Source of the DNA: an uncultured archaeon
Lineage (GTDB): Archaea; Asgardarchaeota; Lokiarchaeia; Sigyniarchaeales; SOKP01
Length of the DNA stretch: 31,696 nucleotides
Assembly (NCBI GenBank): GCA_964388035.1
Contig: CAYLZE010000056.1
Span: forward strand, 1 to 31,696
Direction of reading: 5' to 3'
Below are positions 3,270 through 31,696 of this stretch, piece after piece. Both the position numbers and the translations under genes were made by a program. The notes beneath the pieces were generated by a model, which worked only from the letters and a program-made list of their open reading frames with translations, ran no database searches and was not told where the DNA came from. Position 1 is the first letter of the stretch, and each line of letters starts with the position of its first letter.

Positions 3270-4892
3270 CTATTTTTTAAATACTGTTTTTCCTCTTATG
3301 ATTGTCTCGAGCACCTGGATGTCTTTTAAATTTTCCGCAGAAGTTTTAGCAACTTCTATTGGGTTTTTATCCAAAATAACCAAATCCGCAAATTTTCCCA
3401 CTTCAATACTCCCTTTAATATCCTCTTCAAAAGCGGCATATGCTGCATTAATTGTATAAGATTTCAAGGCGTCTTGAATGGAAATGCACTGCTCGGGTAT
3501 AAATCCCCCACGTGTACATAATGCATATAGACCCAGTATAGGACTGGGATCTTCTACGGGGCAATCTGAGCCTGAGGCTATGAGAACGCCAGCATCTAAT
3601 AAGGACTTAATGGGATAAGCCCGTTTCGAGCGTTCTTTTCCTAGGCGATAATCTGCAAGTGCAGAATCCGTGGTGATAAAAGGAGGTTGAATCGAGGCAA
3701 TTAATTGTAAATCTTTCATATCTTGAATTGTATCAGGGGTTAATACAGAAGCATGTTCAATTCTGTGGCGATGGTTCTCACGAGGATATTCCATTAACAA
3801 TTTTTTATATAAATCAACTAAAACCCGACATCCTCGATCGCCGATACTATGTATAGCTAATTGAAATCCAAGATTATGCCCTTCCTTCATTTCCTTGTAT
3901 AAGGTTTCTATATCATTATAAACGCAGAGACCAGAAGAATTCGGATTATCCGTATATGGTTCGAGCATCCAAGCCGTGCTGGCACCTAAAGATCCATCTA
4001 TAAATAATTTTTGCGCTTCCACCCTGAATTTGCTCTCTTTTTTGCCCCCATCCAATGGGAGTTTTTTAATTTTTTTGATTTTTTTCGCTGATTTTGAAAT
4101 TACAAGACTATACCAATTTTGTAGAATTAAATTTTGGATAGATTTCATTATTGGAATCTCTATTGCTCCAATTTCGTCAAATTCTCCTCCCGCACCTAAA
4201 CTAATAACGCCATGAAGGGAAGTGATCCCTTTTTCGGCTAAGCTTGAAAACGCTTTTCTTGCCGCCAGGCTTATTTGATCCATGCTGGGGATTGCAAATT
4301 TTCCCATAAAGACGCGGACTGCTTGTTCGGTCACCACTCCCGTTAATTCTCCCTTATCATTCTTTCGATATTCGCTCCCTTCAGGTGGGATTGAGGTTTT
4401 ATCAATGCCAGCGTCTGCTAATGCTTTACTATTTGCCACACCACAATGCCCGTCAAACCGCAAAATAAAAGCAGGATTATCCGGACAAGCTTTATCTAGA
4501 TCCCAGCGATTAGGTAATTTTTTATCCTTAGGGTCTTTAAATTTAAGTTCATCATATGCTACACCAAAAATCAATTCTCCCGGCGGTCGTTGCTCGGCGG
4601 CTTCTTTCATCCTAATTAAAAATTCTTCATAACTTTGAAGTCCGCGCAAATAAAGGACGATTTGAAATAATACATACCCAATAGGATGACAGTGAGAATC
4701 AGTAAATCCAGGTAATAACGTATTTCCTTCAAGATCAACAAGTTCATAATCTTTTCCCATTATATTTTTTACATCTTCAATCTTACCAACGGCGATTATT
4801 TTCTCTCCTTCGATCCCGATGCTTTCTACTAAAGGAGCCACTTCATTCATCGTGAGAATGGACCTACCATAAAAAATCTTTTTTTCACTCAT
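3270..4892 (-). CDS. Amidohydrolase 3 family, YtcJ-like (paralog 3 of tandem array)
   Basis: LPGFTDSHCHP, KLFIDGSLG, AIHSIGDR, HRIEHAS, GSDCPVE, YTINAA, GSIEVGKFADLVILD. Confidence 0.92.
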   Translation of the reverse strand: MSEKKIFYGRSILTMNEVAPLVESIGIEGEKIIAVGKIEDVKNIMGKDYELVDLEGNTLLPGFTDSHCHPIGYVLFQIVLYLRGLQSYEEFLIRMKEAAEQRPPGELIFGVAYDELKFKDPKDKKLPNRWDLDKACPDNPAFILRFDGHCGVANSKALADAGIDKTSIPPEGSEYRKNDKGELTGVVTEQAVRVFMGKFAIPSMDQISLAARKAFSSLAEKGITSLHGVISLGAGGEFDEIGAIEIPIMKSIQNLILQNWYSLVISKSAKKIKKIKKLPLDGGKKESKFRVEAQKLFIDGSLGASTAWMLEPYTDNPNSSGLCVYNDIETLYKEMKEGHNLGFQLAIHSIGDRGCRVLVDLYKKLLMEYPRENHRHRIEHASVLTPDTIQDMKDLQLIASIQPPFITTDSALADYRLGKERSKRAYPIKSLLDAGVLIASGSDCPVEDPSPILGLYALCTRGGFIPEQCISIQDALKSYTINAAYAAFEEDIKGSIEVGKFADLVILDKNPIEVAKTSAENLKDIQVLETIIRGKTVFKK

Positions 4893-5010
4893 TTAGACCA
4901 TCCACTTTTTTCAATTAAATCATTTAATTCTTGAATTAGTATTCATTTAATATTTAAAATATTTTTCTCTTCAAATTAGAAAAATAAGGAAAAAACCGCG
5001 AGAAAGGTTT

Positions 5011-6630
5011 TTACTTTTTATCTCTTTGAAAAACCACTTCACCTTTGATGATAGTGGAAAGAATTTGGATGTTTTTCACTTCATTAGGAGGTGTTGTAAG
5101 TGGATTCCTGTCAAGAATGACAAAATCAGCCATTTTTCCAAGTTCAATCGTTCCTCGTACTTTTTCTTGAAAACAAGCAAATGCTGCATTAATAGTATAG
5201 AATTTTAATGCTTCTTCTATTGGAATACATTGCTCGGGAACAAATCCATTACGAGTAACCAATGCATGAAGTCCCTTAATGGGATCAGGGTCTTCAACGG
5301 GACAATCGGAGCCTGCCGCGACTATAACCCCCTCAGAAATTAAAGATTTATAGGGATAAGCCTGCTTGCTCCGTTCTTTCCCTATCCTTCTTTCGAGCCA
5401 TTTGTATTCGGAATTAAGAAAGGAAGGTTGACAAGAAGCAATAATCCCTAATTCCTTCATGTCCTTAATGACATCGTCCATTAACGAGCTGCAATGTTCG
5501 ATTCTATGGCGATGATCCTCACGAGGATAATCCTTTAAAAGTTTTTTATACATGTCCACTAACATGCGGTTTGCTTTATCTCCAATACTGTGTATCGCGA
5601 TTTGATAACCAAGATTATGGGCTTCCACCATTCTTTCATAAAGCACGTTTTTATCCACCACCAAAAATCCATTCTTTTCTGGTAGATCCGTGAAATTCTC
5701 ATACATCAAAGCCGAAGCAGACCCATAAGTTCCATCAAACCATGATTTTAACGCACCTACTTTATACTTTCCCTCTTCCTCCTTGTCATGCAATGCTGAT
5801 TTTCTTAATCTGTTAAGTTTTTTAGGAGTTTGAGTATATACCATGAAATAATAGTTTTGAAAGATTTTATCCTTAACTAATTTCATGATCGGGATCGAAA
5901 TTCCGCCAAGATTTTCCACTCCACCTTCATGATCTAGTTCAATAAGTCCGTGAACAGATGTAATGCCCTTCTCTGCCAAGCTTTGGGAAAACTTTAATGC
6001 AGCAGCATTCGTGGTCTCAGAATCGGGAGGTGGGATACTATTCATGACGAGATTGGTTGCATTTTCCGTTAAGATTCCTGTTATCTTGCCCTCCTTATTT
6101 TTCTGAATTTCTCCACCTTCTGGGACAGGTGTATTTTCATTTATTCCAAATGCCTTCAAGGCTTTACTATTTATAACGATTAAATGTCCATCGGTTCTTA
6201 AGATTCCACAGGGGTTATCCATAACAGCTTCATCTAAATCCCAACGCGTGGGAAGAACTGGAGGATTAAAATTCTGTTCATTGAAGTTTAATCCCAATAT
6301 TAACTCATCGGGTTTTTTTTGTTGCGCAGATTTTTTTAAGACGGTTTTTAATTCATCTATACTTTTTACTTCAGCCAGATCGGGAAAAATGAAATAAAAA
6401 AGAGAGCCCACGGGATGGATATGACAATCTGAAAATCCGGGAAGCATGCATGCCCCTTTTAAGTCAATGAGTTCAGTATTTTCTCCCATTTGATTTTGGA
6501 CTTCTTTTAAACTACCCGTTGCCTCAATTTTTTCATCTACGATCCCTACAGCTTCAATTATTGAATTCGCCAGATTGGAAGTCGTCATGCTTAAAATTAT
6601 ACCATTGTGAAATATTTTTTTATTAATCAT
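5011..6630 (-). CDS. Amidohydrolase 3 family, YtcJ-like (paralog 2)
   Basis: LPGFSDCHIHP, KSWFDGTYG, AIHSIGDK, HRIEHCS, GSDCPVE, GTIELGKMADFVILD; GAGGT Shine-Dalgarno upstream. Confidence 0.92.
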   Translation of the reverse strand: MINKKIFHNGIILSMTTSNLANSIIEAVGIVDEKIEATGSLKEVQNQMGENTELIDLKGACMLPGFSDCHIHPVGSLFYFIFPDLAEVKSIDELKTVLKKSAQQKKPDELILGLNFNEQNFNPPVLPTRWDLDEAVMDNPCGILRTDGHLIVINSKALKAFGINENTPVPEGGEIQKNKEGKITGILTENATNLVMNSIPPPDSETTNAAALKFSQSLAEKGITSVHGLIELDHEGGVENLGGISIPIMKLVKDKIFQNYYFMVYTQTPKKLNRLRKSALHDKEEEGKYKVGALKSWFDGTYGSASALMYENFTDLPEKNGFLVVDKNVLYERMVEAHNLGYQIAIHSIGDKANRMLVDMYKKLLKDYPREDHRHRIEHCSSLMDDVIKDMKELGIIASCQPSFLNSEYKWLERRIGKERSKQAYPYKSLISEGVIVAAGSDCPVEDPDPIKGLHALVTRNGFVPEQCIPIEEALKFYTINAAFACFQEKVRGTIELGKMADFVILDRNPLTTPPNEVKNIQILSTIIKGEVVFQRDKK

Positions 6631-6640
6631 TTTATGATTT

Positions 6641-6645
6641 ACCTC
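6641..6645 (-). promoter_or_regulatory. Shine-Dalgarno-like GAGGT upstream of amidohydrolase paralog 2
   Basis: Minus strand reads GTGAGGTAAATCATAAA-ATG. Confidence 0.5.
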
Positions 6646-6772
6646 ACTAATCAGATTAAAATAAACCTAATTTTAATTTGGATGATTATAATACAGGTAT
6701 GAATGATAATTAAATAGTTCCATATTTAACACAAAAGAAAATTAAATTATAAGTATTTGATTTACAAAATAA

Positions 6773-8374
6773 TTAATTTTTTTTATACACTGTTTTTCCT
6801 CGAATGATGGTTTCTAGAACTTGTATGTTCTTTATTTCATTATTTGGCACTTCTAGAAGATTTTTATCTAAAATTACGAAATCAGCTAATTTTCCTTCTC
6901 CAATGGACCCCTTTAGATTTTCTTCAAAACTGGCGAATGCTGCGTTAATGGTATAAGTTTTTAATGCCTCTTCAATAGAAATACATTGCTCAGGAACAAA
7001 ACCATTCCGAGTAACTAAAGCGTGTAATCCCATAATAACGGAGGGGGATTCCACAGGACAATCCGATCCAGATATGAGAGTAACTCCTGCATCAATTATG
7101 GATTTCATAGGATAGGTATATTTGCAACGTTCTTTTCCTAATCTTTTTTCCAACCAAGTATATTCTGAATTAATAAATGATGGTTGACAAGATGCAATAA
7201 TCCCTAATTCTTTCATATCTCTGATTATATCGTCAGTAAGCATGCTTGCGTGCTCAATTCTGTGTCTATGATCCGTTCTTGGAGATTCCTCAAGTAATCG
7301 CTTAAACAAATTTACCGCTATCCTATTTCCTTTATCCCCTATTACATGAATCCCAATTTGGAAACCTAAATCGTGAGCTACTTTCATTTTTTGATAAATC
7401 TCCTCCAAATCCACCACGCAGAATCCACATTTTTGGGGGTCATCCGTGAAAGGTTCATACATGCAAGCTGTTTGAGCTCCAAAGGTTCCATCCAAGAATA
7501 ATTTCAAGCAACCTAATTTAAATTGACTGTCCTCTTTTCCGAAATCTAAGGGAGGTTTCTTCTTTCGCTTAAGTTTGTTTGGGAATCGCGTGGAGAGTAA
7601 AATATACCAGTTTTGAAGGATGTTATCTTGAACTTTTTCAAAAACGGATAATTCAATGGCACCCAAATCTCCGACTTCACCACCAGGTTCTCCCTGCATT
7701 ATCCCATGAAGGGTGGTAATGCCTTGTTCTGCAAGAATTTTAAATCCTTTTTCTGCTACATTATAAATAGCATCCAAAGATGGTTTATATTTTGAAATTA
7801 TTAATTGCATTGCATTCTCGGAAAAAATACCATTTATTTTTCCATTTTCATCCTTTCTAATTTCTCCTCCTTCTGGTGATACTGTATCTTCGGTCACACC
7901 CGCCCATTCTAATGCCTTAGTATTTGCAATGCCGATATGTCCATCATACCGTAATAAAAAAACAGGATTATCAGGACACGCCTCATCTAAATCCCAGCGA
8001 GTGGGTAAGGTGGGTTTATCAAAATTCTCTTCCTTCAAACTTAATCCTAAGATAAAGGCACCTTTTTCTTTCTTACTTGTTTCTTCAGATAATAATTTCT
8101 TTAATTGTTCTAAACTTTTCACATTCGATAGTATAGGATTAACCAAGAAAAATAAAAAGAATAGAGGATGAATATGACAATCAATGAAACCAGGCATTAA
8201 GACATTGCCTTTCAAATCTATTGATTCAAAATCGCCACCTAACGTTCGCTTTACAGATTCTAAATCCCCAACTGCAATTATTTGTTCGTCAATTACACCC
8301 ACAGCACCAACTCCTTGCAATTTCTTATCCATTGTGAGTATGGGCCCGCCAAAAAACAGTTTTTTCTTTTTCAT
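6773..8374 (-). CDS. Amidohydrolase 3 family, YtcJ-like (paralog 1)
   Basis: MPGFIDCHIHP, KLFLDGTFG, GIHVIGDK, HRIEHAS, GSDCPVE, GSIGEGKLADFVILD. Confidence 0.92.
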   Translation of the reverse strand: MKKKKLFFGGPILTMDKKLQGVGAVGVIDEQIIAVGDLESVKRTLGGDFESIDLKGNVLMPGFIDCHIHPLFFLFFLVNPILSNVKSLEQLKKLLSEETSKKEKGAFILGLSLKEENFDKPTLPTRWDLDEACPDNPVFLLRYDGHIGIANTKALEWAGVTEDTVSPEGGEIRKDENGKINGIFSENAMQLIISKYKPSLDAIYNVAEKGFKILAEQGITTLHGIMQGEPGGEVGDLGAIELSVFEKVQDNILQNWYILLSTRFPNKLKRKKKPPLDFGKEDSQFKLGCLKLFLDGTFGAQTACMYEPFTDDPQKCGFCVVDLEEIYQKMKVAHDLGFQIGIHVIGDKGNRIAVNLFKRLLEESPRTDHRHRIEHASMLTDDIIRDMKELGIIASCQPSFINSEYTWLEKRLGKERCKYTYPMKSIIDAGVTLISGSDCPVESPSVIMGLHALVTRNGFVPEQCISIEEALKTYTINAAFASFEENLKGSIGEGKLADFVILDKNLLEVPNNEIKNIQVLETIIRGKTVYKKN

Positions 8375-11408: not shown

Positions 11409-12680
11409 TTAAATCAACATTGCTTTTAGAAATCGGGGGGATAGAGTAATTTTCGAAAGTGCGGGTAGTTTACCAAATAATTTTTCACCCACGTATTTGT
11501 CTTTATTTGTATCATGTTTTGCTAGATCTTGATTAATATGGGCTTCATATATGTATCTCTGAGATGTTTCATCCATAGCAACAACTTCACAATAATATTT
11601 CCATAAAGACCTTACATAGGATCCTGTATTGTAAAATAAATACTCGCACGCATTTCCGTTTCTAAAATAATTGTTCAATAACACTCGATTAACTTCCGAA
11701 TCATATTTGCTTAATTCATAGCGCGTGAGATTACTTTCACTTTTCAGCAAGGGTTTTACAGTTTCTGCAGCCAAGTGTGCACTTGCTAAGCCACATAAAA
11801 TTCCTTCATAGAAGAAAGAGGTAACTATTCCCGCAGCTTCCCCCAAAACAATCGTTCTATCGTTAGAGAATTGCTTCAATGGATGCTTGGAAATTTTACC
11901 CGTCACAACATCAATACCTTTTTTCAAATTTTTAATAAAAGGTTGTATCCTTTTGTAATTTTGCAAAATTCGGTCTAATTTGTTGTTCATTTCTGCGGGA
12001 GTATCATTCATTTTTCCGAGAAATCCTACAAAAGCCCTTTCTACCCCCTTATTGATGAAAAAGGGTCCATCCGTGCTTATTTTTGGATTATAATGAAAAA
12101 TGTATTGGCATTTTAAATTATCATTTAATACATCTTCATCTCCATGTAAATGAACGCATATTCCTTGATATTGATCTGGAACACCCAAGCCTAGAGCTTT
12201 TTGTAATGAAAAATCCCACGAGCCCGTGGCAAAAGCTAGCAATTTAGTTGTAATAGATTCGCCATTATTACACGTGATTTCTACACGATCCCTCGTTTTA
12301 TTCACTCGTTTCGCTTTTATTCCAAATTTAGTATCCCCGCCTCTATTTTCAAATAGATGAATCATATGTTCAATGAATCTATCCGTGTAACAAATATTTC
12401 CCAAGGGAATCCCAAATTTTGTAGAATCAATCACACCATCGACTTCATCCGCCATGTAATCTGCGCGAAGATGTGGTATAGGAAAAATAGTCTTATCATT
12501 CCAATCGACTTCTTGAATGAAAGGACGATTGTGCTCCGGAAAAATATTGGTCTTAATCGGAATTCCTTTAGAAAAATCTTTTTCTTCAATTAATAACGTT
12601 TTCGCATGTCCTGCCATTTTTAAAGCGAAGGAAGACCCCGCTACTCCAGCACCAATAACTACAATTTCATAATCAGAAAT
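11409..12680 (-). CDS. FAD-dependent oxidoreductase, geranylgeranyl-reductase-like; probable ATT start
   Basis: The frame continues upstream of ATG 12617 as ISDYEIVVIGAGVAGSSFALK (Rossmann GxGxxG). Also FATG and VLGEAAG...EGI motifs. No ATG/GTG/TTG before the TAA at 12701-12699; AGGGTG lies 7 nt upstream of ATT 12680. Confidence 0.82.
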   Translation of the reverse strand: MSDYEIVVIGAGVAGSSFALKMAGHAKTLLIEEKDFSKGIPIKTNIFPEHNRPFIQEVDWNDKTIFPIPHLRADYMADEVDGVIDSTKFGIPLGNICYTDRFIEHMIHLFENRGGDTKFGIKAKRVNKTRDRVEITCNNGESITTKLLAFATGSWDFSLQKALGLGVPDQYQGICVHLHGDEDVLNDNLKCQYIFHYNPKISTDGPFFINKGVERAFVGFLGKMNDTPAEMNNKLDRILQNYKRIQPFIKNLKKGIDVVTGKISKHPLKQFSNDRTIVLGEAAGIVTSFFYEGILCGLASAHLAAETVKPLLKSESNLTRYELSKYDSEVNRVLLNNYFRNGNACEYLFYNTGSYVRSLWKYYCEVVAMDETSQRYIYEAHINQDLAKHDTNKDKYVGEKLFGKLPALSKITLSPRFLKAMLI

Positions 12681-12865: not shown

Positions 12866-13618
12866 TTAAATTATATTTTCGATCCTTTTCCCTAATTTGT
12901 TAAGATAGAGCTCGGCCATTCCCAGGGGAACAGACTTTTCAAAGAGTAACACAATTAAAAAATCCACGCCTTCTGGGACGAGACTTATAATTTTTGAAAA
13001 GACTTTTTGACCATTTTCCAATTGATAAAATAATTCGGGTAATGCTTCCACTCCGGTCATGAATCGAATTTCTAATTCTCGCAACGAATCTAATAAAATT
13101 TGATTGGGTAATGAAGAATACACGATGTTCCCCTTCGTAGTTAATAAACACGCACCGGTAATTTCATTTTTTGAAATTTCTTCTTTAAAGAGATTGATCG
13201 CTCTAATATAAAAATCTTTATTCTTAAGGATTTCCTCTTCGCCTTTTATTATCGAATCTGAAATTGTATCCAGTTCGGGATCCTCGATTTCCTTGCAAAC
13301 ATCCAAGTATTCAGGCTTATTATACATTTGAAAGAAGACATTCATGAGCTTCTCTATCCGTGAAATTATGAAAAGTAAACTTACGGTCGTATCCGCTAGA
13401 ATCGCAAAAATAAACTTCTCTCGCTTTCTAAAAACAAACCGTAATCCGCTCATTTCAAGTACTTCCATCTTTCTAGATATGATATTTTCAGCAAAAGAAA
13501 TAATGGCAGAAAAGAATGGGGTAATTAGATTCACGTTAAGATTGAACTCGCTTGTAAAATTTCTACTGTATAAGCAACACCCTGACTGATCTAACACAAA
13601 TAATGAGTGGATTTTCAT
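12866..13618 (-). CDS. Longin-domain + roadblock-like fusion protein
   Basis: N-terminal IHSLFVLDQSGCCLYSRNF...LITPFFSAIISFAE...FIFAILAD fits the longin pattern; C-terminal ITGACLLTTKGNIVYSSLP...FLIVLLF..VPLGMAEL fits the roadblock/LAMTOR pattern. Confidence 0.75.
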   Translation of the reverse strand: MKIHSLFVLDQSGCCLYSRNFTSEFNLNVNLITPFFSAIISFAENIISRKMEVLEMSGLRFVFRKREKFIFAILADTTVSLLFIISRIEKLMNVFFQMYNKPEYLDVCKEIEDPELDTISDSIIKGEEEILKNKDFYIRAINLFKEEISKNEITGACLLTTKGNIVYSSLPNQILLDSLRELEIRFMTGVEALPELFYQLENGQKVFSKIISLVPEGVDFLIVLLFEKSVPLGMAELYLNKLGKRIENII

Positions 13619-21133: not shown

Positions 21134-22063
21134 GTGAGTGAAAATAAAAAAATTTCGCAGAAAAAGATATTCAGATACATGAAAACAGATAAAGATTTTT
21201 TTAAAAATCTTAATCGAATTAAGAATAAAAAACAAAAAAAGATCGTGGATGTTCCAAGACCCTTCGTAAAATGGGCGGGAGGAAAGAGGCAGATTATCAA
21301 TCGCATGGATAGATTTTTTCCAGAAGAATTTGATACTTATATTGAACCTTTTTTAGGGGGAGGAGCAATATTTTTTTATTTACTGCCGTCAAAAGCAATT
21401 TTAATTGATATCAATCCCGAATTGATCAATACCTATCAAGTAATACAAGAAGATGTTGTAAAACTAAGTGAATCTCTCAAAAAGCATGAGAATGAGAAAG
21501 AATATTATTATAAACTTCGTAATATAGATAGAAATTTGGAGGAATTCAATAAATGGTCCAAAATTGAAAAAGCTTCAAGAACCATTTATTTAAATAGGTG
21601 TTGCTATAATGGCTTGTATCGTGTAAACAGTAAGGGGCAGTACAATGTTCCTTTTGGCAAGTACAAGAATCCAAATTTTTGCGACGAGAAAAATCTATGG
21701 GCAGTACATGAGGCATTAAAAAATGTTAAAATTATTCAAGGGGGGTTTGAGAGAGTCTTAGAGTTTGCCGAGAAAGGAGATTTTATATATTTTGACCCGC
21801 CCTATCATCCGCTTTCGGAGACATCTAATTTTACCAGTTATACAAAATTTGATTTCGGAAAGGAATCGCAAATAAGACTTTTTGAAGTATTTAAGGAACT
21901 GGATAAGAAAGGATGCAAGCTATTGTTAAGCAATTCCTATAATGAATTCATTATCAAGTTATATAAAGATTATAAAATTGTTACCATCAATGCAAAGCGA
22001 GCCATCAATAGTGATGCATCCAAACGTGGGAAGATAAAAGAAGTTTTAGTAATGAATTCTTGA
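21134..22063 (+). CDS. dam: Dam-family (D12 class) N6-adenine DNA methyltransferase
   Basis: KWAGGK, YIEPFLGGG, IYLNRCCYNGLYRVNSKGQYNVPFG, DPPY catalytic motif, LSNS. GATC specificity is inferred from the family. Confidence 0.93.
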   Translation: MSENKKISQKKIFRYMKTDKDFFKNLNRIKNKKQKKIVDVPRPFVKWAGGKRQIINRMDRFFPEEFDTYIEPFLGGGAIFFYLLPSKAILIDINPELINTYQVIQEDVVKLSESLKKHENEKEYYYKLRNIDRNLEEFNKWSKIEKASRTIYLNRCCYNGLYRVNSKGQYNVPFGKYKNPNFCDEKNLWAVHEALKNVKIIQGGFERVLEFAEKGDFIYFDPPYHPLSETSNFTSYTKFDFGKESQIRLFEVFKELDKKGCKLLLSNSYNEFIIKLYKDYKIVTINAKRAINSDASKRGKIKEVLVMNS

Positions 22064-22752
22064 AAGAACATGTAAGAATGGTTAAAATGTCAGTGGCACA
22101 GAAAAAAAAATTATTTGTCAAGCTCCTCTTGGACTGGTTTAAAGAAAATAAACGCAACTTTTATTGGAGAGTTCATGAATTGACCCCTTTTCAGATGTTA
22201 ATAGCAGAGATGATGCTTCAAAAAACAAATGCTAATCAAGTAGAAAAATTACTTCCAGACTTCATAAAAAAATATCCTGATCCACAAAGTATTTGTAAAT
22301 TAGATTTATTAGAGTTAGCTGAGATATTACAACCTTTAGGATTATTTAATCGCCGAGCGAGAGATTTAAGAAAAACAGCCCAATATCTTTTAGAGCATGA
22401 TAAAATCATTCCCACCACAAAAAAGGAATTAAAAAGTTTACCGGGGGTAGGAGATTATATTGCTAATGCGCTTCTATGCTTTGCGTTTAATAAGCCGGTT
22501 CCGATCATAGACGCCAATGTTGGGCGCGTTATTAAGAGGGTATTTTCATTCCCAGTTAAGAGTGCCCCTTCTCGGGATAAGAAGCTTGAAGAATTCATGC
22601 AAGGTTTATTGCCAAAAGAAAATTATAAAGAATTTAATTTAGCAATTTTGGATTTAGCTGCCTTAATCTGCACTCCGACATCTCCTGCTTGTGAAGACTG
22701 TCCTTTATTAAGCATAAGTGATTTCGGACAAAAAGCACGATCCTCCAAATAA
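22060..22752 (+). CDS. HhH-GPD DNA glycosylase, MutY/Mig (T:G mismatch)-like
   Basis: IAEMMLQKT, PLGL..RRA, HhH LPGVGDY, catalytic IDANV, C-terminal C-X6-C-X2-C-X5-S. TTG start overlaps the dam TGA. Confidence 0.88.
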   Translation: MKEHVRMVKMSVAQKKKLFVKLLLDWFKENKRNFYWRVHELTPFQMLIAEMMLQKTNANQVEKLLPDFIKKYPDPQSICKLDLLELAEILQPLGLFNRRARDLRKTAQYLLEHDKIIPTTKKELKSLPGVGDYIANALLCFAFNKPVPIIDANVGRVIKRVFSFPVKSAPSRDKKLEEFMQGLLPKENYKEFNLAILDLAALICTPTSPACEDCPLLSISDFGQKARSSK

Positions 22753-22827
22753 AATATATAAGAAAAGGGAATTAATCGTTGGTCATAAAGCAAAGGATCG
22801 ATAATTAGAATAAAAAAAATCAAACGG

Positions 22828-24054
22828 ATGGTCATATTGTATAATATTATTGATTTATTTGCCGGATGTGGTGGATTTAGTGAAGGTTTTAAACTAGAAG
22901 GTTTTCAAGTCATAGCAGCCAATGAATTTTGGGAGCCAGCTATCGAGACTTATAAATATAATCATGGAAGTACAAGATTGATCGAAGGAGATATAACTTT
23001 AAAAGAAATTAAGCAACAAATATATGATTCTGTTAAAGATGAAAAAATTAATGTCATTATTGGTGGACCTCCCTGCCAAGCTTATTCCATTTCAGGAAAT
23101 AGAAATCCCGATGACCCAAGAGGCAAATTATATTTAGACTTTATTGAGATGGTGGACCATGTAAAGCCGGACTTCTTTATAATGGAAAATGTGAAGGGAT
23201 TAATTCACATGAAGCACCTCAATCCCCATCTTTCAAAAAAAGGATTAGCAGCATTTAAAGATCAGTGTTCTAAATTACAGAGATATAAAGATTTGAAAAG
23301 GTATAAGGCACAGAGAGAATTAAATGAAGAGGAAGAAAAAGATTATTCTACAATAGAAAAAGAGATAAAGTCGATTAAAAAAGAGATTAATAAAAATTTA
23401 ATCCCTCTCTTGGATATAATTTTAGAGAAAATGAGGGAGATTAATTATAAAGTTGAATGGAGAGTTCTTAATGCCGCCAATTATGGAGTTCCTCAGACGA
23501 GAGAACGAATAATCTTCATTGGCACGAAACACGAACAATATCCCATTAATTTTCCAAAAATGACTCATTTCAATGGAGATATCCAAACCACGATAAATGA
23601 ATTTTCAGAAGAAAGAGACGGGGGAAGTAAAAAAAAGGCTTGGAATACTGCGGGAGAAACCTTGAAAAAGTATGAAAAGTGGCCTGAAGTTCCAGAAAAA
23701 AATCACTTATTTACCAAACATTCCAAAACATTCATTCAAAAACTACACGATACCCCTATTGGAGAAACAGTGTATAAAAATTATAGTGATGCATGGCGGA
23801 GACTAGATCCCAAAAAACCCGCTAAAACCGTGAAAGAAAATCACGGCGGCGTTTTTGTGCATTTTGAACTAGATAGGGTTTGTACTCCCCGGGAACTAGC
23901 CGCTTTACAATCTTTCAGCGATTCTTTTATTTTTAGAGGCACTAAAAGTTCGATACTGAAACAGATAGGGAACGCGGTTCCTCCTTTATTAGCTAAAGCA
24001 ATAGGAAAACAAGTTAAATCCGATTTAGATCGAATTTATGGAAAAACACTATAA
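22828..24054 (+). CDS. DNA (cytosine-5) methyltransferase
   Basis: Motif I DLFAGCGG, IV GGPPCQ, VI ENV, VIII PQTRER, IX RELAALQSF, X QIGNAVPP. Confidence 0.95.
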   Translation: MVILYNIIDLFAGCGGFSEGFKLEGFQVIAANEFWEPAIETYKYNHGSTRLIEGDITLKEIKQQIYDSVKDEKINVIIGGPPCQAYSISGNRNPDDPRGKLYLDFIEMVDHVKPDFFIMENVKGLIHMKHLNPHLSKKGLAAFKDQCSKLQRYKDLKRYKAQRELNEEEEKDYSTIEKEIKSIKKEINKNLIPLLDIILEKMREINYKVEWRVLNAANYGVPQTRERIIFIGTKHEQYPINFPKMTHFNGDIQTTINEFSEERDGGSKKKAWNTAGETLKKYEKWPEVPEKNHLFTKHSKTFIQKLHDTPIGETVYKNYSDAWRRLDPKKPAKTVKENHGGVFVHFELDRVCTPRELAALQSFSDSFIFRGTKSSILKQIGNAVPPLLAKAIGKQVKSDLDRIYGKTL

Positions 24055-24892: not shown

Positions 24893-25189
24893 ATGAACTT
24901 AAATAAAACTCGAATTCTCAGAATTTTAACAGATATAAAAGGAGAACTGAGTTCTAAATATAAAGTAAAGCAAGTAGGATTATTTGGTTCATATATTAAA
25001 AATGTTCAAGAAGAATCAAGCGATATAGATTTTCTAGTAGAATTCGAGGAGGATGCAGATTTATTTCATTATATTGGTCTTATCTTATTTCTCGAAGAAA
25101 AATTTAACCGAAGAGTTGATGTTATTTCTAAACCAGCATTAAAAGAAGATTTGAGAGATATTATTTTACACGAGGTTGTTTACGTTTAA
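24893..25189 (+). CDS. Minimal nucleotidyltransferase (MNT/MntA-type antitoxin family)
   Basis: 98 aa; GLFGSY...SDIDFLVEF and LEEKFNRRVDVI motifs. Confidence 0.88.
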   Translation: MNLNKTRILRILTDIKGELSSKYKVKQVGLFGSYIKNVQEESSDIDFLVEFEEDADLFHYIGLILFLEEKFNRRVDVISKPALKEDLRDIILHEVVYV

Positions 25190-27488: not shown

Positions 27489-28061
27489 TTAAGCTTTTAA
27501 CTTTTTCAATAAGTATACCATGTTCTTTCCCAGATTTTCAAATGTCTGAATACCTTCTTTATCTTTCTCAACATCTCCAGGTTCCCGTCCTATTCCTATG
27601 TTCCAGTAAGATGAGGGAACTACGAAAATTTGATTAATTAGGAAAAAATTATTAATGCTCGAAAACGCGTGAATTGCTCCTGCTCTTCTTACTGCCACGA
27701 CAGCTGCGCCAACTTTATATTTATACATGTCACTATTCATTCTGTCTACCATCCCGGCCCTGTCAATGAAGGCTTTTACCGTAGATGAAACATCTGCAAA
27801 ATAAGTCGGGGATCCTATGACCATTCCATCTGCTTGCAGTATTTTTTCTACATACTCGTTTAGCTTATCATTTTCCTGCGAGCATCTTCTCTTTCCTTCG
27901 CATTTAAAACAAGCTTTACAAGGTAATAAAGGCTCTTGACCTATCCATACATATTCACATTCAATCCCGCCTGCCTCTAATTGTTCCTTGACCACATTGA
28001 GTGCGTGATAGGTATTTCCTTTAGCCCTTGCGCTTCCATTAAATAATACCACTTTAATCAT
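27489..28061 (-). CDS. Iron-sulfur flavoprotein / flavodoxin-like NADPH-dependent FMN reductase family
   Basis: GSARAKGNT FMN-binding loop, CKACFKC-X5-C cluster motif, GSPTYF, RRAG and SSYWNIG. Confidence 0.88.
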   Translation of the reverse strand: MIKVVLFNGSARAKGNTYHALNVVKEQLEAGGIECEYVWIGQEPLLPCKACFKCEGKRRCSQENDKLNEYVEKILQADGMVIGSPTYFADVSSTVKAFIDRAGMVDRMNSDMYKYKVGAAVVAVRRAGAIHAFSSINNFFLINQIFVVPSSYWNIGIGREPGDVEKDKEGIQTFENLGKNMVYLLKKLKA

Positions 28062-28269: not shown

Positions 28270-30321
28270 ATGATAAATTATAAAAAAATTCAATTCGTTA
28301 TATTCTACGGCATTCTATTTTTCTTGTTGATAGAATCATTTAGCAACATGATGGTTGACACGAATGCACACGTATTCATGAATCTCTCGCAGATTCAAAT
28401 GATTTTGCCATCGATTATAATTTTACTAATAATAATATTCGCCGAGATTATACTCTTTTATAAAAAGTCAATTGATCTTAAATATAAACCCTATATCTTA
28501 GTATATCTCATCTCAGGTATCCGGCTTCTCGCTCAATTCATTATTTTTCCTCCAATTATCATGATTCTTAATTATTCTCTTTTTTTCTCAATAGTCTTGC
28601 TCTTTATTGATTTAATCCCTTTCATGGAATCACATAATGTTGATTTTGACTTCCTAACGTTTTTATTTGGCATTTCAGTCGGAATAGGAATCCAATTAAT
28701 ATTCCTAATGCTTAATGTATCCTTGGATTTGACAAGTGATCCTATTAAAATCATTCCCATCATGGTTTTTGTGGCTTTTCTTCTGATTACAAATTGGCAA
28801 TTCCTACATCCTAAAATTTTTGAAGAATATCCTCAAAAAGTAAAAAATGTAAATGAAACAGCCCCAAGGAAGGAAATTTCATTCTTTCACTTCATTGTTT
28901 TCGGTATTTTATTTCTCTTATCCTTAACTTGGGCAATTAATCCCATGGCTCTTTCTGCTTATGACTTGTTAGACCGTTCTTACAATCACCTTATTGGAGG
29001 TACTATTCATTGGATCTCTTACGGGTTTACCTATTACATATTTATAATAGCCGGAACCGCATTCATTAGCAGTATTCTTGCGTTTAAAGCAATCTCGACT
29101 AAATCCTACAAGTTCATGATAAAGCTAATCATTTTCTCCATGGTAATTTCTTCTCTATTAAATGGACTTGCTTATTTCATTATTGAAAATCCCATAATTG
29201 GATTATCTACCTTCTATATAACCCTCTTAGTAATTGTGAATGTATTCTCGATAATTACCTACTTTTCATTTTGCTTTTCCTTTTATTCGTTTCAAAACAG
29301 GAAGAAGCTTTATTTAGGATTGGTGGTGTTCTTCTTTACATGTTTCTTTTTTATCATTTTACAGGTTGAAATTATATGGTATGAATATTTATCGCTGTTA
29401 ATTAACGATATTATCATTCTGTCTGTTAGTGGAACCGTGCTCATAATCATTTTAGAGCTCAAACATTTCAACTTGGATATGAAACTTAAAGAAATTAAAT
29501 GGGAAAAGGAATTTCATATTCCAGTAATATACGCAATATTTTTAATTCTTCTATTTATCTCTTTTGGAGTAATCATGAGTGAGAGAATTCCAACGCCCAA
29601 CCCTAGACCATCCCCCAAATTTATGACTTTTAATATACATAATGCAATTGGGGTGGATGACGTGTTTGATCCCAGTAGAATTGTAGATACAATAAAGGAA
29701 AATGATCCCGATATTTTAGGATTGAATGAGGTAGATTTAGGAGCATTAAAAACATCCTTTGCAGATTTAACCTCGTATTTTGCTCATAATCTTAACATGT
29801 ATTATTTTTACGGATATACTTTTTACAAGCATTATGGTAATGCACTTTTTAGTAAATATCCAATAAAATCGGCCGAAATCATTCACTTACCTCAAGCAGT
29901 ACAATCTACAGAACCCAGATCCTTGATCAAAGCAAAAATTGAAATAGGAAATGATATTTGGACTGTGTATATAACGCATCTCTCCACAAACGAGGAGGAT
30001 CGCCTCGTGCAGGTTCCCTATATTCTTTCAATAATTAGTCAAGAGCAAAAAGTTAACAAAGTTGTATGGATGGGGGATTTTAATTTAATACCGAGTTCAG
30101 AAGAATATCAGTTCATTCAGACTTCATCATTACATCTGATTGACACGTATCCCTATCTGCATAAATCAGATCCCGGATATACGGGCGATTATAATGATAA
30201 TTACAGCCCAACAAAAAGGATTGATTACATTACATGTTCTCCAGATTTAACCCCCCAAACTAGCTATATTTACTGTTCAATTGCTTCTGATCATTGCTCA
30301 GTCATAACTGAATTTACTTGA
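28270..30321 (+). CDS. Polytopic membrane protein with C-terminal EEP (endonuclease/exonuclease/phosphatase) domain, Cwh43/PGAP2IP-like
   Basis: About 13 hydrophobic segments in aa 1-437, then TFNIH, LNEVD, GNALFSKYPI, THL, GDFN, IDYI and SDH. Confidence 0.85.
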   Translation: MINYKKIQFVIFYGILFFLLIESFSNMMVDTNAHVFMNLSQIQMILPSIIILLIIIFAEIILFYKKSIDLKYKPYILVYLISGIRLLAQFIIFPPIIMILNYSLFFSIVLLFIDLIPFMESHNVDFDFLTFLFGISVGIGIQLIFLMLNVSLDLTSDPIKIIPIMVFVAFLLITNWQFLHPKIFEEYPQKVKNVNETAPRKEISFFHFIVFGILFLLSLTWAINPMALSAYDLLDRSYNHLIGGTIHWISYGFTYYIFIIAGTAFISSILAFKAISTKSYKFMIKLIIFSMVISSLLNGLAYFIIENPIIGLSTFYITLLVIVNVFSIITYFSFCFSFYSFQNRKKLYLGLVVFFFTCFFFIILQVEIIWYEYLSLLINDIIILSVSGTVLIIILELKHFNLDMKLKEIKWEKEFHIPVIYAIFLILLFISFGVIMSERIPTPNPRPSPKFMTFNIHNAIGVDDVFDPSRIVDTIKENDPDILGLNEVDLGALKTSFADLTSYFAHNLNMYYFYGYTFYKHYGNALFSKYPIKSAEIIHLPQAVQSTEPRSLIKAKIEIGNDIWTVYITHLSTNEEDRLVQVPYILSIISQEQKVNKVVWMGDFNLIPSSEEYQFIQTSSLHLIDTYPYLHKSDPGYTGDYNDNYSPTKRIDYITCSPDLTPQTSYIYCSIASDHCSVITEFT

Positions 30322-30368
30322 ATTAATAGAGGTATGAAATCTTCAAAATAAAAGGTAAGGAATCAATC

Positions 30369-31696
30369 ATGTTTTTAGAAAAACTTAGAGCAATCAAAGG
30401 GAAGAGGTGGCTACTATTTTCCTGCATTTATTTAACCAATTTTTCCATTTTCATTTTATTTTTACTTATATTGCAGCCGTATTGGGGAGAAATAAACAGC
30501 ACCGTTTCGGATTGGTTTGGAATTAATCTCAATCTTATCTTGGTCTTATTTTTCATTTTTTTAGCTCCTCTCCTCTATATCCTTACCTTAATCCTTCAAT
30601 CTTTGAGAATGATACGCATGCAATTAGAGATTTCCATATCAAAATTAAATAAAATCCTTCCCTTGATCCTTACCATAGTTTTTAATCTATTAGTGGTATT
30701 GCTCTTAATTGAATTGGGGGGATATTCCTTGTTAATTCCTCAGTTCATGGAATTTTATAGCATTTTTATTTATCTAGCTATCCAAGGGCTGCTCATTATA
30801 TTTCTTTATCCTCTAATTCGAGCACTTCCACAGCTCAAATTCAATCTTTCCAATAAAATCATGAGCGCCAAGAAAAAAAGTGTAATCATCATTGCATGTC
30901 TATTAGGCAGTTATATCTTTATATTCGCTTCACCCTTCCTTTTTGTACCGGCAAATGTATATTCAAACGAATTACCCATAAAACCAGACGTTATTGCTCA
31001 TAGGGGTGGAGCGTATCTTGGTCCTGAAAACACGCTCTTGGCTGTAGAAGCTTCCCTTCAATTTAATATTGTCGGGTGGGAAGTTGATATCCAAATCAGC
31101 AAGGATGGAATACCCTTTTTGATGCACGATAATACCCTCACCAGAACTACAAATGTTGAAGATGTATTTCCCGATCGCAAGAATGACCCCGCGGAATCTT
31201 TTACCATGGCAGAGTTAAAAAAATTGGATGCGGGATCTTGGTTCGTGGAAAAAGACCCTTATGGAGTAATTAGAGAAGGAATCATCAGTACTGAACAAGC
31301 AGAATCTTATAGAGGGGCTAAAATTCCCACTTTCCAGGAAGTATTACAATTTACCAAAGCTCATGATATATATCTTGATTTTGACATGAAATCACCTTCT
31401 CAAGATCACCCTTTCCACGATAGATATTTTAACATTATTTTGGACATGACAATTCATTCCGGAATCGATTTAAGTAAAGTAATGATACCTACTACCAATA
31501 AGAATGTTATTAACTTGATAATGTATAGAAATGCAAATGAAATTTTAACGGGTTATGAGTATATTAATACGGGGGATGAATATTCAAACGAAGAATATAG
31601 GTCCTTCCATGCCGAAAATTTCCCCGTCATGGTCTATACTATTGACTCGGTAGAGCGATTCTGTGAACTATGGTGTTTAGGGGTGACGTGGGTTAA
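30369..31696 (+). CDS. Membrane-anchored glycerophosphodiester phosphodiesterase, GDE2/GDE3/GDE6-like (3' truncated by window end)
   Basis: Hand-translated open frame from ATG 30369 to the window end: five TM segments, then KPDVIAHRGG..GPENT, WEVDIQISKDGIPFLMHD.TL.RTTN, LDAGSWF, IPTFQEVL and VYTID. Confidence 0.9.
   Translation, partial: MFLEKLRAIKGKRWLLFSCIYLTNFSIFILFLLILQPYWGEINSTVSDWFGINLNLILVLFFIFLAPLLYILTLILQSLRMIRMQLEISISKLNKILPLILTIVFNLLVVLLLIELGGYSLLIPQFMEFYSIFIYLAIQGLLIIFLYPLIRALPQLKFNLSNKIMSAKKKSVIIIACLLGSYIFIFASPFLFVPANVYSNELPIKPDVIAHRGGAYLGPENTLLAVEASLQFNIVGWEVDIQISKDGIPFLMHDNTLTRTTNVEDVFPDRKNDPAESFTMAELKKLDAGSWFVEKDPYGVIREGIISTEQAESYRGAKIPTFQEVLQFTKAHDIYLDFDMKSPSQDHPFHDRYFNIILDMTIHSGIDLSKVMIPTTNKNVINLIMYRNANEILTGYEYINTGDEYSNEEYRSFHAENFPVMVYTIDSVERFCELWCLGVTWV

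Follow-up and report, generated by a model that had tools for sequence, protein, structure and literature searches.

Two families of eukaryotic membrane phosphodiesterases are among the closest described relatives of the gene pair examined here. GDE2, GDE3, and GDE6 (GDPD5, GDPD2, and GDPD4) are defined by five transmembrane (TM) helices, a GDPD ectodomain, and one further TM helix (PMC5576486, PMC11314389), and they have so far been studied as animal enzymes that shed glycosylphosphatidylinositol (GPI)-anchored proteins; GDE3 is an ecto-enzyme that hydrolyzes glycerophosphoinositol and lyso-phosphatidylinositol monomers and requires no protein anchor (PMC11314389). PGAP2IP (mammalian CWH43) and the C-terminal part of fungal Cwh43 combine a multi-TM region with a C-terminal EEP domain (PF23022, PF23021, and PF23226), and the EEP group that holds both already has a published Asgardarchaeota/Chloroflexota subcluster (Fossa et al. 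2023, PMC10704324). The window, a stretch of 31,696 nucleotides, spans contig C56 from end to end in a metagenome-assembled genome of Promethearchaeota (Lokiarchaeia; 5.47 Mb, 96.7% complete; G000), and its end carries two genes on the plus strand, gene 1 (28270..30321) and gene 2 (30369..31696). An earlier note described them as two co-oriented genes 47 nt apart that encode polytopic membrane proteins with an EEP and then a GDPD domain, a description that open reading frames (ORFs), Pfam matches, and bridging metagenome contigs confirm, and read them as a GPI-like anchor remodelling-and-release module. The valuable results of our analysis lie elsewhere, in a prokaryotic six-TM GDE, in a major facilitator superfamily (MFS) fold, and in a complete PGAP2IP clade in other Asgard archaea, and the gene pair itself adds little.

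Gene 2 encodes a six-TM glycerophosphodiester phosphodiesterase of the GDE2/3/6 type that is cut by the contig end, leaving 442 of ~495 amino acids (aa). Five hydrophobic segments (TM1 to TM5, 30414..30938) precede a GDPD TIM-barrel ectodomain (30975..31694; PF03009, E 1e-23), and TM6 would lie past the contig end: an ortholog from the same genus, 495 aa long and 65% identical, has a sixth helix after the catalytic domain, as do nearly all full-length homologs. An exhaustive phmmer search aligned gene 2 almost full length with animal GDPD5-like proteins (Tubulanus, E 9e-51; Priapulus; Littorina) and further matched whale GDPD5, squirrel-monkey GDPD2, Chromosphaera, Mastigamoeba, and Pelomyxa; BLAST identity to the animal members is 26 to 38%. 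The five-helix region is homologous to the N-terminal TM region of animal GDEs by HH profile comparison (probability 98.0%, E 1.5e-13, 174 columns), with controls using MFS and EEP-TM regions below 6%. The catalytic His/Arg/Glu/Asp/His set is intact (H211, R212, E238, D240, and H253) and includes the canonical Glu of GDE3, whereas whale GDE2 has Gln there. By the Lys/Arg bias of its loops (positive-inside rule), the N terminus is predicted to be inside and the barrel outside. Unlike animal GDEs, gene 2 lacks long cytosolic tails and a Cys-rich N terminus, has a deletion of 15 to 20 aa in the barrel, and belongs to an archaeal host in which GPI transamidase was not detected, and its substrate is a predicted one.

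The tree of the catalytic domain (IQ-TREE, LG+C20+F+G4) unites six-TM GDEs from Asgard archaea, Anaerolineae, and Amorphea in one 100/100 clade against soluble GDPDs, which rejects the placement of gene 2 among generic soluble GlpQ. Judged from these sequence data, the assignment of gene 2 to the true GDE2/3/6 six-TM subfamily is solid, and the GDE2/3-like label of the earlier note is borne out by TM homology, catalytic residues, and this clade. That note had also considered a position of both proteins among generic GlpQ/EEP scavenging enzymes, and neither nests among generic soluble GlpQ. Within the clade, eukaryotic members group with Anaerolineae at 99/94 and the Asgard sequences form a weakly supported sister group, and a clade of Asgard plus eukaryotic sequences is not rejected (approximately unbiased test, P = 0.21). 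Six-TM GDEs of the gene 2 type occur in 38 of 301 Asgard genomes; full-length bacterial ones come from Anaerolineae except for a single contig (L079, labelled Ca. Nanopelagicaceae), whose tandem six-TM GDE genes nest among Lokiarchaeia sequences and which is probably mis-binned. On the eukaryotic side, homologs of the six-TM type in the anaerobic amoebozoans Mastigamoeba and Pelomyxa (entries P0191 and P0291; three GDPD repeats in Mastigamoeba) extend the range to Amorphea. A literature search that missed most subscription papers found no publications on prokaryotic six-TM GDEs, nor any on PGAP2 among the eukaryotic signature proteins of Asgard archaea.

Gene 1 encodes a 13-TM membrane EEP phosphodiesterase of 683 aa. 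Its first 12 TM helices (aa 1 to 404; 28270..29481) adopt an MFS fold in the AlphaFold2 model (pLDDT 83), with VIA Z scores of 20.0 to SotB (332 aligned residues, root mean square deviation [rmsd] 4.4), 19.1 to FLVCR2, and 18.6 to Spns1; across the MFS transporters SotB, FucP, FLVCR2, and Spns1, the 12-TM two-bundle fold is shared at Z 17 to 21 over 310 to 350 residues. Foldseek and ESM-atlas searches with the whole model did not recover the MFS match. Unlike these transporters, the TM domain shows ~10% identity, has no MFS Pfam match, and is fused to an enzyme, and transport by it is putative. TM13 (29518..29574) leads the catalytic domain to the outside, as predicted from hydropathy and from even loops rich in Lys/Arg under the positive-inside rule. 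The EEP domain (29605..30318) matches PF03372 (81.9 bits, E 7e-23) and PF23226 (60.6 bits, E 2e-16; cut-off 27), the generic family outscoring the PGAP2IP one. N455, E487, H570, D603, N605, D674, and H675 are intact, and the metal-site residues N455, E487, D603, N605, D674, and H675 correspond to positions mutated in GlcNAc-PDase (PMC10704324). Gene 1 resembles the 'Asgard/Chloroflexus' subcluster of that study in its EEP group, its metal ligands, and its distribution over Asgard archaea and Chloroflexota; the characterized GlcNAc-PDases, from Clostridia, differ from gene 1 in being soluble and secreted, and the Asgard/Chloroflexus proteins were neither assayed there nor was their MFS-fold domain described (PMC10704324).

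The gene 1 EEP family is present in 135 of 301 Asgard genomes and in 30 of 201 genomes of the class Anaerolineae, and the structure model of gene 1 aligns from end to end with a Chloroflexota cluster (TM-score 0.82). The host genome has four copies, one of which is split into a gene with 11 to 12 TM helices and an overlapping 1-TM EEP gene (contig C74, 15823-17902; L203); downstream of them lie an MFS sugar-transporter-like gene and one that is probably sulfatase-like. Copies split in this way are also present in three further genomes (G177, G268, and G085).

How close is gene 1 to PGAP2IP? The Cwh43-like label of the earlier note holds in part: the architecture of multiple TM helices plus a C-terminal EEP domain is that of PGAP2IP, PF23226 is above its cut-off, and the ESM feature score to a fungal PGAP2IP cluster is 0.96, but both TM families of PGAP2IP, PF23022 and PF23021, are missed at the window locus and in all 37 close homologs. 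Fungal Cwh43, which exchanges DAG for ceramide on GPI anchors, has a fused N-terminal Frag1/PGAP2 domain that gene 1 lacks; ~17 DUF998/Frag1-like genes lie elsewhere in the host genome. A separate Asgard clade, which includes sequences labelled Hodarchaeota and Kariarchaeaceae, passes the cut-offs of all three families and scores far higher on the PGAP2IP profiles, as in P0363 with 62, 125, and 119 bits. Carriers of the full domain set are L217:1261-3249 (G297), P0360-P0367, and L247-L251. The TM domain of this clade likewise has an MFS fold (FucP, Z 21.3, 320 aligned, rmsd 4.0). Its TM profile gave no direct match to that of the gene 1 clade (0.6%), and the two are linked only through intermediate paralogs: the gene 1 clade matches generic Asgard paralogs at 62% (E 7.6e-5), and these match the PGAP2IP-like clade at 98.8%. 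In a tree of EEP domains built from prokaryotic sequences only, the gene 1 domain sits on a branch apart from the PGAP2IP-like clade, and Pfam scores and this tree favor the other Asgard clade, rather than gene 1, as nearer to PGAP2IP. On sequence grounds, gene 1 thus appears as a distant paralog built on the PGAP2IP blueprint and not as its closest Asgard relative, and direct prokaryotic relatives of PGAP2IP/Cwh43 are best sought in the Hodarchaeota/Kariarchaeaceae-labelled clade.

The adjacency of the two genes is real and narrowly distributed. Contigs of two public metagenome runs, one from salt marsh and one from sediment, bridge the intergenic gap, ruling out an assembly artefact, and one metagenome contig extends past the end of the window contig; window DNA is also present in salt-marsh and sediment metagenomes. 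The gap itself (30322..30368, no strand) contains no intrinsic-terminator-like site, and a promoter scan was at chance level with bacterial-type models on an archaeal host. Since 24% of co-oriented neighbors in the host genome are separated by 47 nt or less, the spacing alone is weak operon evidence, and cotranscription of the pair is conjectural. The comparison took in 10 assembly loci and ~70 genomes that have a six-TM GDE locus, 59 of them with 600 nt or more of upstream sequence. Direct EEP-GDE adjacency was found in the host and a second genome of its genus (G001) and in two assemblies (L051 and L289), in each case with a divergent NADPH-dependent FMN reductase gene upstream (27489..28061 in the window, minus strand) that marks a genus-specific synteny block; no other genome of the ~70 has an EEP gene at the GDE locus. 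In Anaerolineae, no EEP gene lies near a GDE gene at any locus within up to 8 kb, and one weak EEP match was obtained among five GDE-bearing genomes. Members of either family usually have no member of the other close by. A conserved operon or obligatory two-gene module is thereby rejected, and the direct adjacency, whose spread across Asgard genomes the earlier note proposed to check, was seen in one genus-level lineage. Homologs of both genes, where named, are for the most part from Promethearchaeota/Lokiarchaeota.

The sister genus gives a more complex picture. In G013, one contig ends with a helicase gene followed by the EEP gene, and the end of another carries the tail of an unrelated ORF followed by the GDE gene (C57 and C262, unjoined), whereas L285/L286, which are 91 to 95% identical to G013, have the helicase gene directly followed by the GDE gene across a gap that is a chimera of both G013 gaps. 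Compared with G013, the EEP gene and one more gene have apparently been deleted in L285/L286 between the DEAD/Hef-like helicase gene and the GDE gene. The ancestor of both genera probably had EEP and GDE genes at one locus, and the GDE gene would stay in place when the EEP gene disappears or moves elsewhere. Neighborhoods of both genes differ between genera, no conserved neighbor family was found for either gene, and the gene 1 family is not linked to lipid synthesis genes. In G008 (L006), a DUF998/Frag1-like six-helix gene is directly downstream of the EEP ortholog; set against the copy number of such genes in the host genome, this one adjacent case was treated as chance.

We also searched for the lipids and anchors on which such enzymes might act. 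Inositol lipids are plausible in the host, given that its genome encodes inositol-1-phosphate synthase and six CDP-alcohol phosphotransferases and that archaea commonly contain archaetidylinositol (PMC9385802). Of the GPI genes that the earlier note had pointed to, however, neither Peptidase_C13 (the transamidase catalytic subunit) nor the PIG-A domain was found in the host, in G001, or in three genomes with the PGAP2IP-like clade (G297, G258, and G215), with working positive controls, and the Peptidase_C13 search came back empty in five genomes besides the host; GPAA1/Gaa1 (PF04114) and PIG-T/Gpi16 (PF04113) gave no match, but their positive controls gave none either. PIG-L-family matches are generic, with nine copies in the host and others in seven control genomes, and are unlinked to the pair, as are the multicopy Frag1-like matches. 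A preprint assigns Asgard ancestry to GPI synthesis and transamidase genes at the phylum level (PMC12338589), which keeps the GPI idea alive in general but not for the window locus.

What might the two proteins do? The reading that we favor, at slightly better than even odds, is that both are phosphodiesterases of the cell surface that salvage or turn over lipid head groups and whose genes are loosely linked in a single lineage, with gene 1 coupling hydrolysis to an MFS-fold domain that presents or transports lipid. Both would be metal-dependent membrane enzymes that, with active sites outside the cell, hydrolyze phosphodiesters derived from lipids at the surface of the membrane. Gene 2 would most likely act like GDE3, cutting glycerophosphoinositol or lyso-(ether)phosphatidylinositol-type monomers, and gene 1 would cut a head group or phospho-substituent off a lipid or glycolipid, which its MFS-fold domain may present or flip, unless that domain takes up the product. 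In this way the cell could salvage or turn over the head groups, phosphate, and backbones of environmental lipids or of its own, and the genes may have become neighbors in one Lokiarchaeia lineage (one genus and probably its sister genus), a loose link perhaps favored by a shared substrate pool. Such roles are consistent with the intact catalytic residues and predicted outward orientation of both proteins, with the MFS fold of gene 1, with the anchor-free substrates of GDE3, with the inositol lipid genes of the host, with the patchy occurrence of both families in Asgard archaea and their presence in Anaerolineae, and with the JGI label 'glycerophosphoinositol inositolphosphodiesterase' on several close homologs, which is an annotation only. 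Several points weigh against it. The elaborate, conserved TM bundle exceeds the needs of a scavenging GlpQ and hints at membrane-embedded substrates; the missing match to MFS Pfams means that transport may be lost; and the sister-genus synteny suggests a linkage older than one genus. The commonest neighbors, MFS/MFS_2 transporter and alpha/beta hydrolase genes, occur at only 3 to 5 of 85 to 104 loci each, and since genes of these types are common in Lokiarchaeia, the neighbor signal is weak.

Two other explanations are both unlikely, each at about one chance in five by our estimate, yet deserve discussion. One is anchor-free remodelling of the cell's own membrane, in which gene 1 would be a Cwh43-like lipid or head-group exchanger (transphosphatidylation) acting on glycosylated archaetidylinositol; the MFS domain would supply the acceptor lipid, and gene 2 would trim lyso/ether by-products. 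Yeast Cwh43 does exchange a lipid moiety and accepts several lipids (PMC4962981), lipid movers occur among the structure matches in the MFS fold (Spns1, MFSD2A, and LtaA), and the host retains its four family members; the distance of the gene 1 clade from the PGAP2IP-like clade, the failure to find the family in more than half of the searched Asgard genomes, and its lack of linkage to lipid synthesis genes argue in the other direction. The other, which we hold to be just as doubtful, makes the genes unrelated neighbors brought together by genome shuffling: gene 1 would strip phosphocholine or phosphoethanolamine from glycans as GlcNAc-PDase does, its MFS domain importing the released group, and gene 2 would hydrolyze glycerophosphodiesters independently. 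Removal of these groups from GlcNAc-6 is the activity of the only biochemically characterized members of the EEP group (PMC10704324), whose metal-site residues gene 1 shares, the surroundings of both genes change between genera, and L285/L286 keep the GDE gene without the EEP gene at the locus. Against this, the characterized Clostridia enzymes are soluble secreted proteins with which our analysis did not group gene 1, and linkage of the pair persists across species at ~67 to 69% nucleotide identity.

A bolder proposal, which we rate as improbable, is that the two enzymes work on a glycosyl-inositol ether lipid of archaea, which possibly tethers proteins or glycans to the surface independently of a transamidase, and so preserve pre-eukaryotic chemistry later recruited for GPI remodelling (PGAP2IP/Cwh43) and shedding (GDE2/3). 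Least probable of all, and very unlikely, is the GPI-like system of the earlier note, in which gene 1 would exchange the lipid that anchors a protein, with gene 2 shedding that protein: both eukaryotic homologies are real, both active sites are predicted on the outside (luminal-equivalent) side, and the inositol lipid genes, the Asgard-ancestry preprint, and a linkage probably spanning two genera speak for it, but the EEP gene is at the locus in just 2 of ~70 GDE-bearing genomes, the linkage is broken in a sister-genus strain, the GPI gene searches came back as described above, the families holding the closest PGAP2IP relatives showed no six-TM GDE (f19, 0/11; f30, 0/3; f33, 0/2), and in eukaryotes the two proteins do not form one module, because PGAP2IP is an endoplasmic reticulum protein whose GPI role in mammals is undetermined, whereas GDE2/3 act at the cell surface (PMC7125958).

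Proteins with the whole architecture of GDE2/3/6 in Asgard archaea, Anaerolineae, and amoebozoans show that the six-TM design also exists in cells without detectable GPI attachment machinery, and they are simple proteins on which the question of the ancestral substrate can be put. That TM domains of the PGAP2IP type have an MFS fold offers a testable idea for lipid handling by Cwh43/PGAP2IP, a hydrocephalus gene in humans whose biochemistry is unclear.

The remainder of the window holds several features of other kinds. ORFs of 250 to 402 aa at 1266-2405, 11409-12617, and 12866-13618 have no Pfam match at E 0.001, and a small MNT-like nucleotidyltransferase of 98 aa (24893-25189) has no HEPN partner among ORFs of at least 80 aa. 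Three tandem Amidohydro_3 paralogs of 533 to 540 aa lie on the minus strand at 3270-8374. Genes for a D12-class adenine methyltransferase, an HhH-GPD glycosylase, and a C5-cytosine methyltransferase follow one another at 21134-24054, with similar genes near the pair in G001, and this cluster may couple a T:G mismatch glycosylase with a 5mC methylase.

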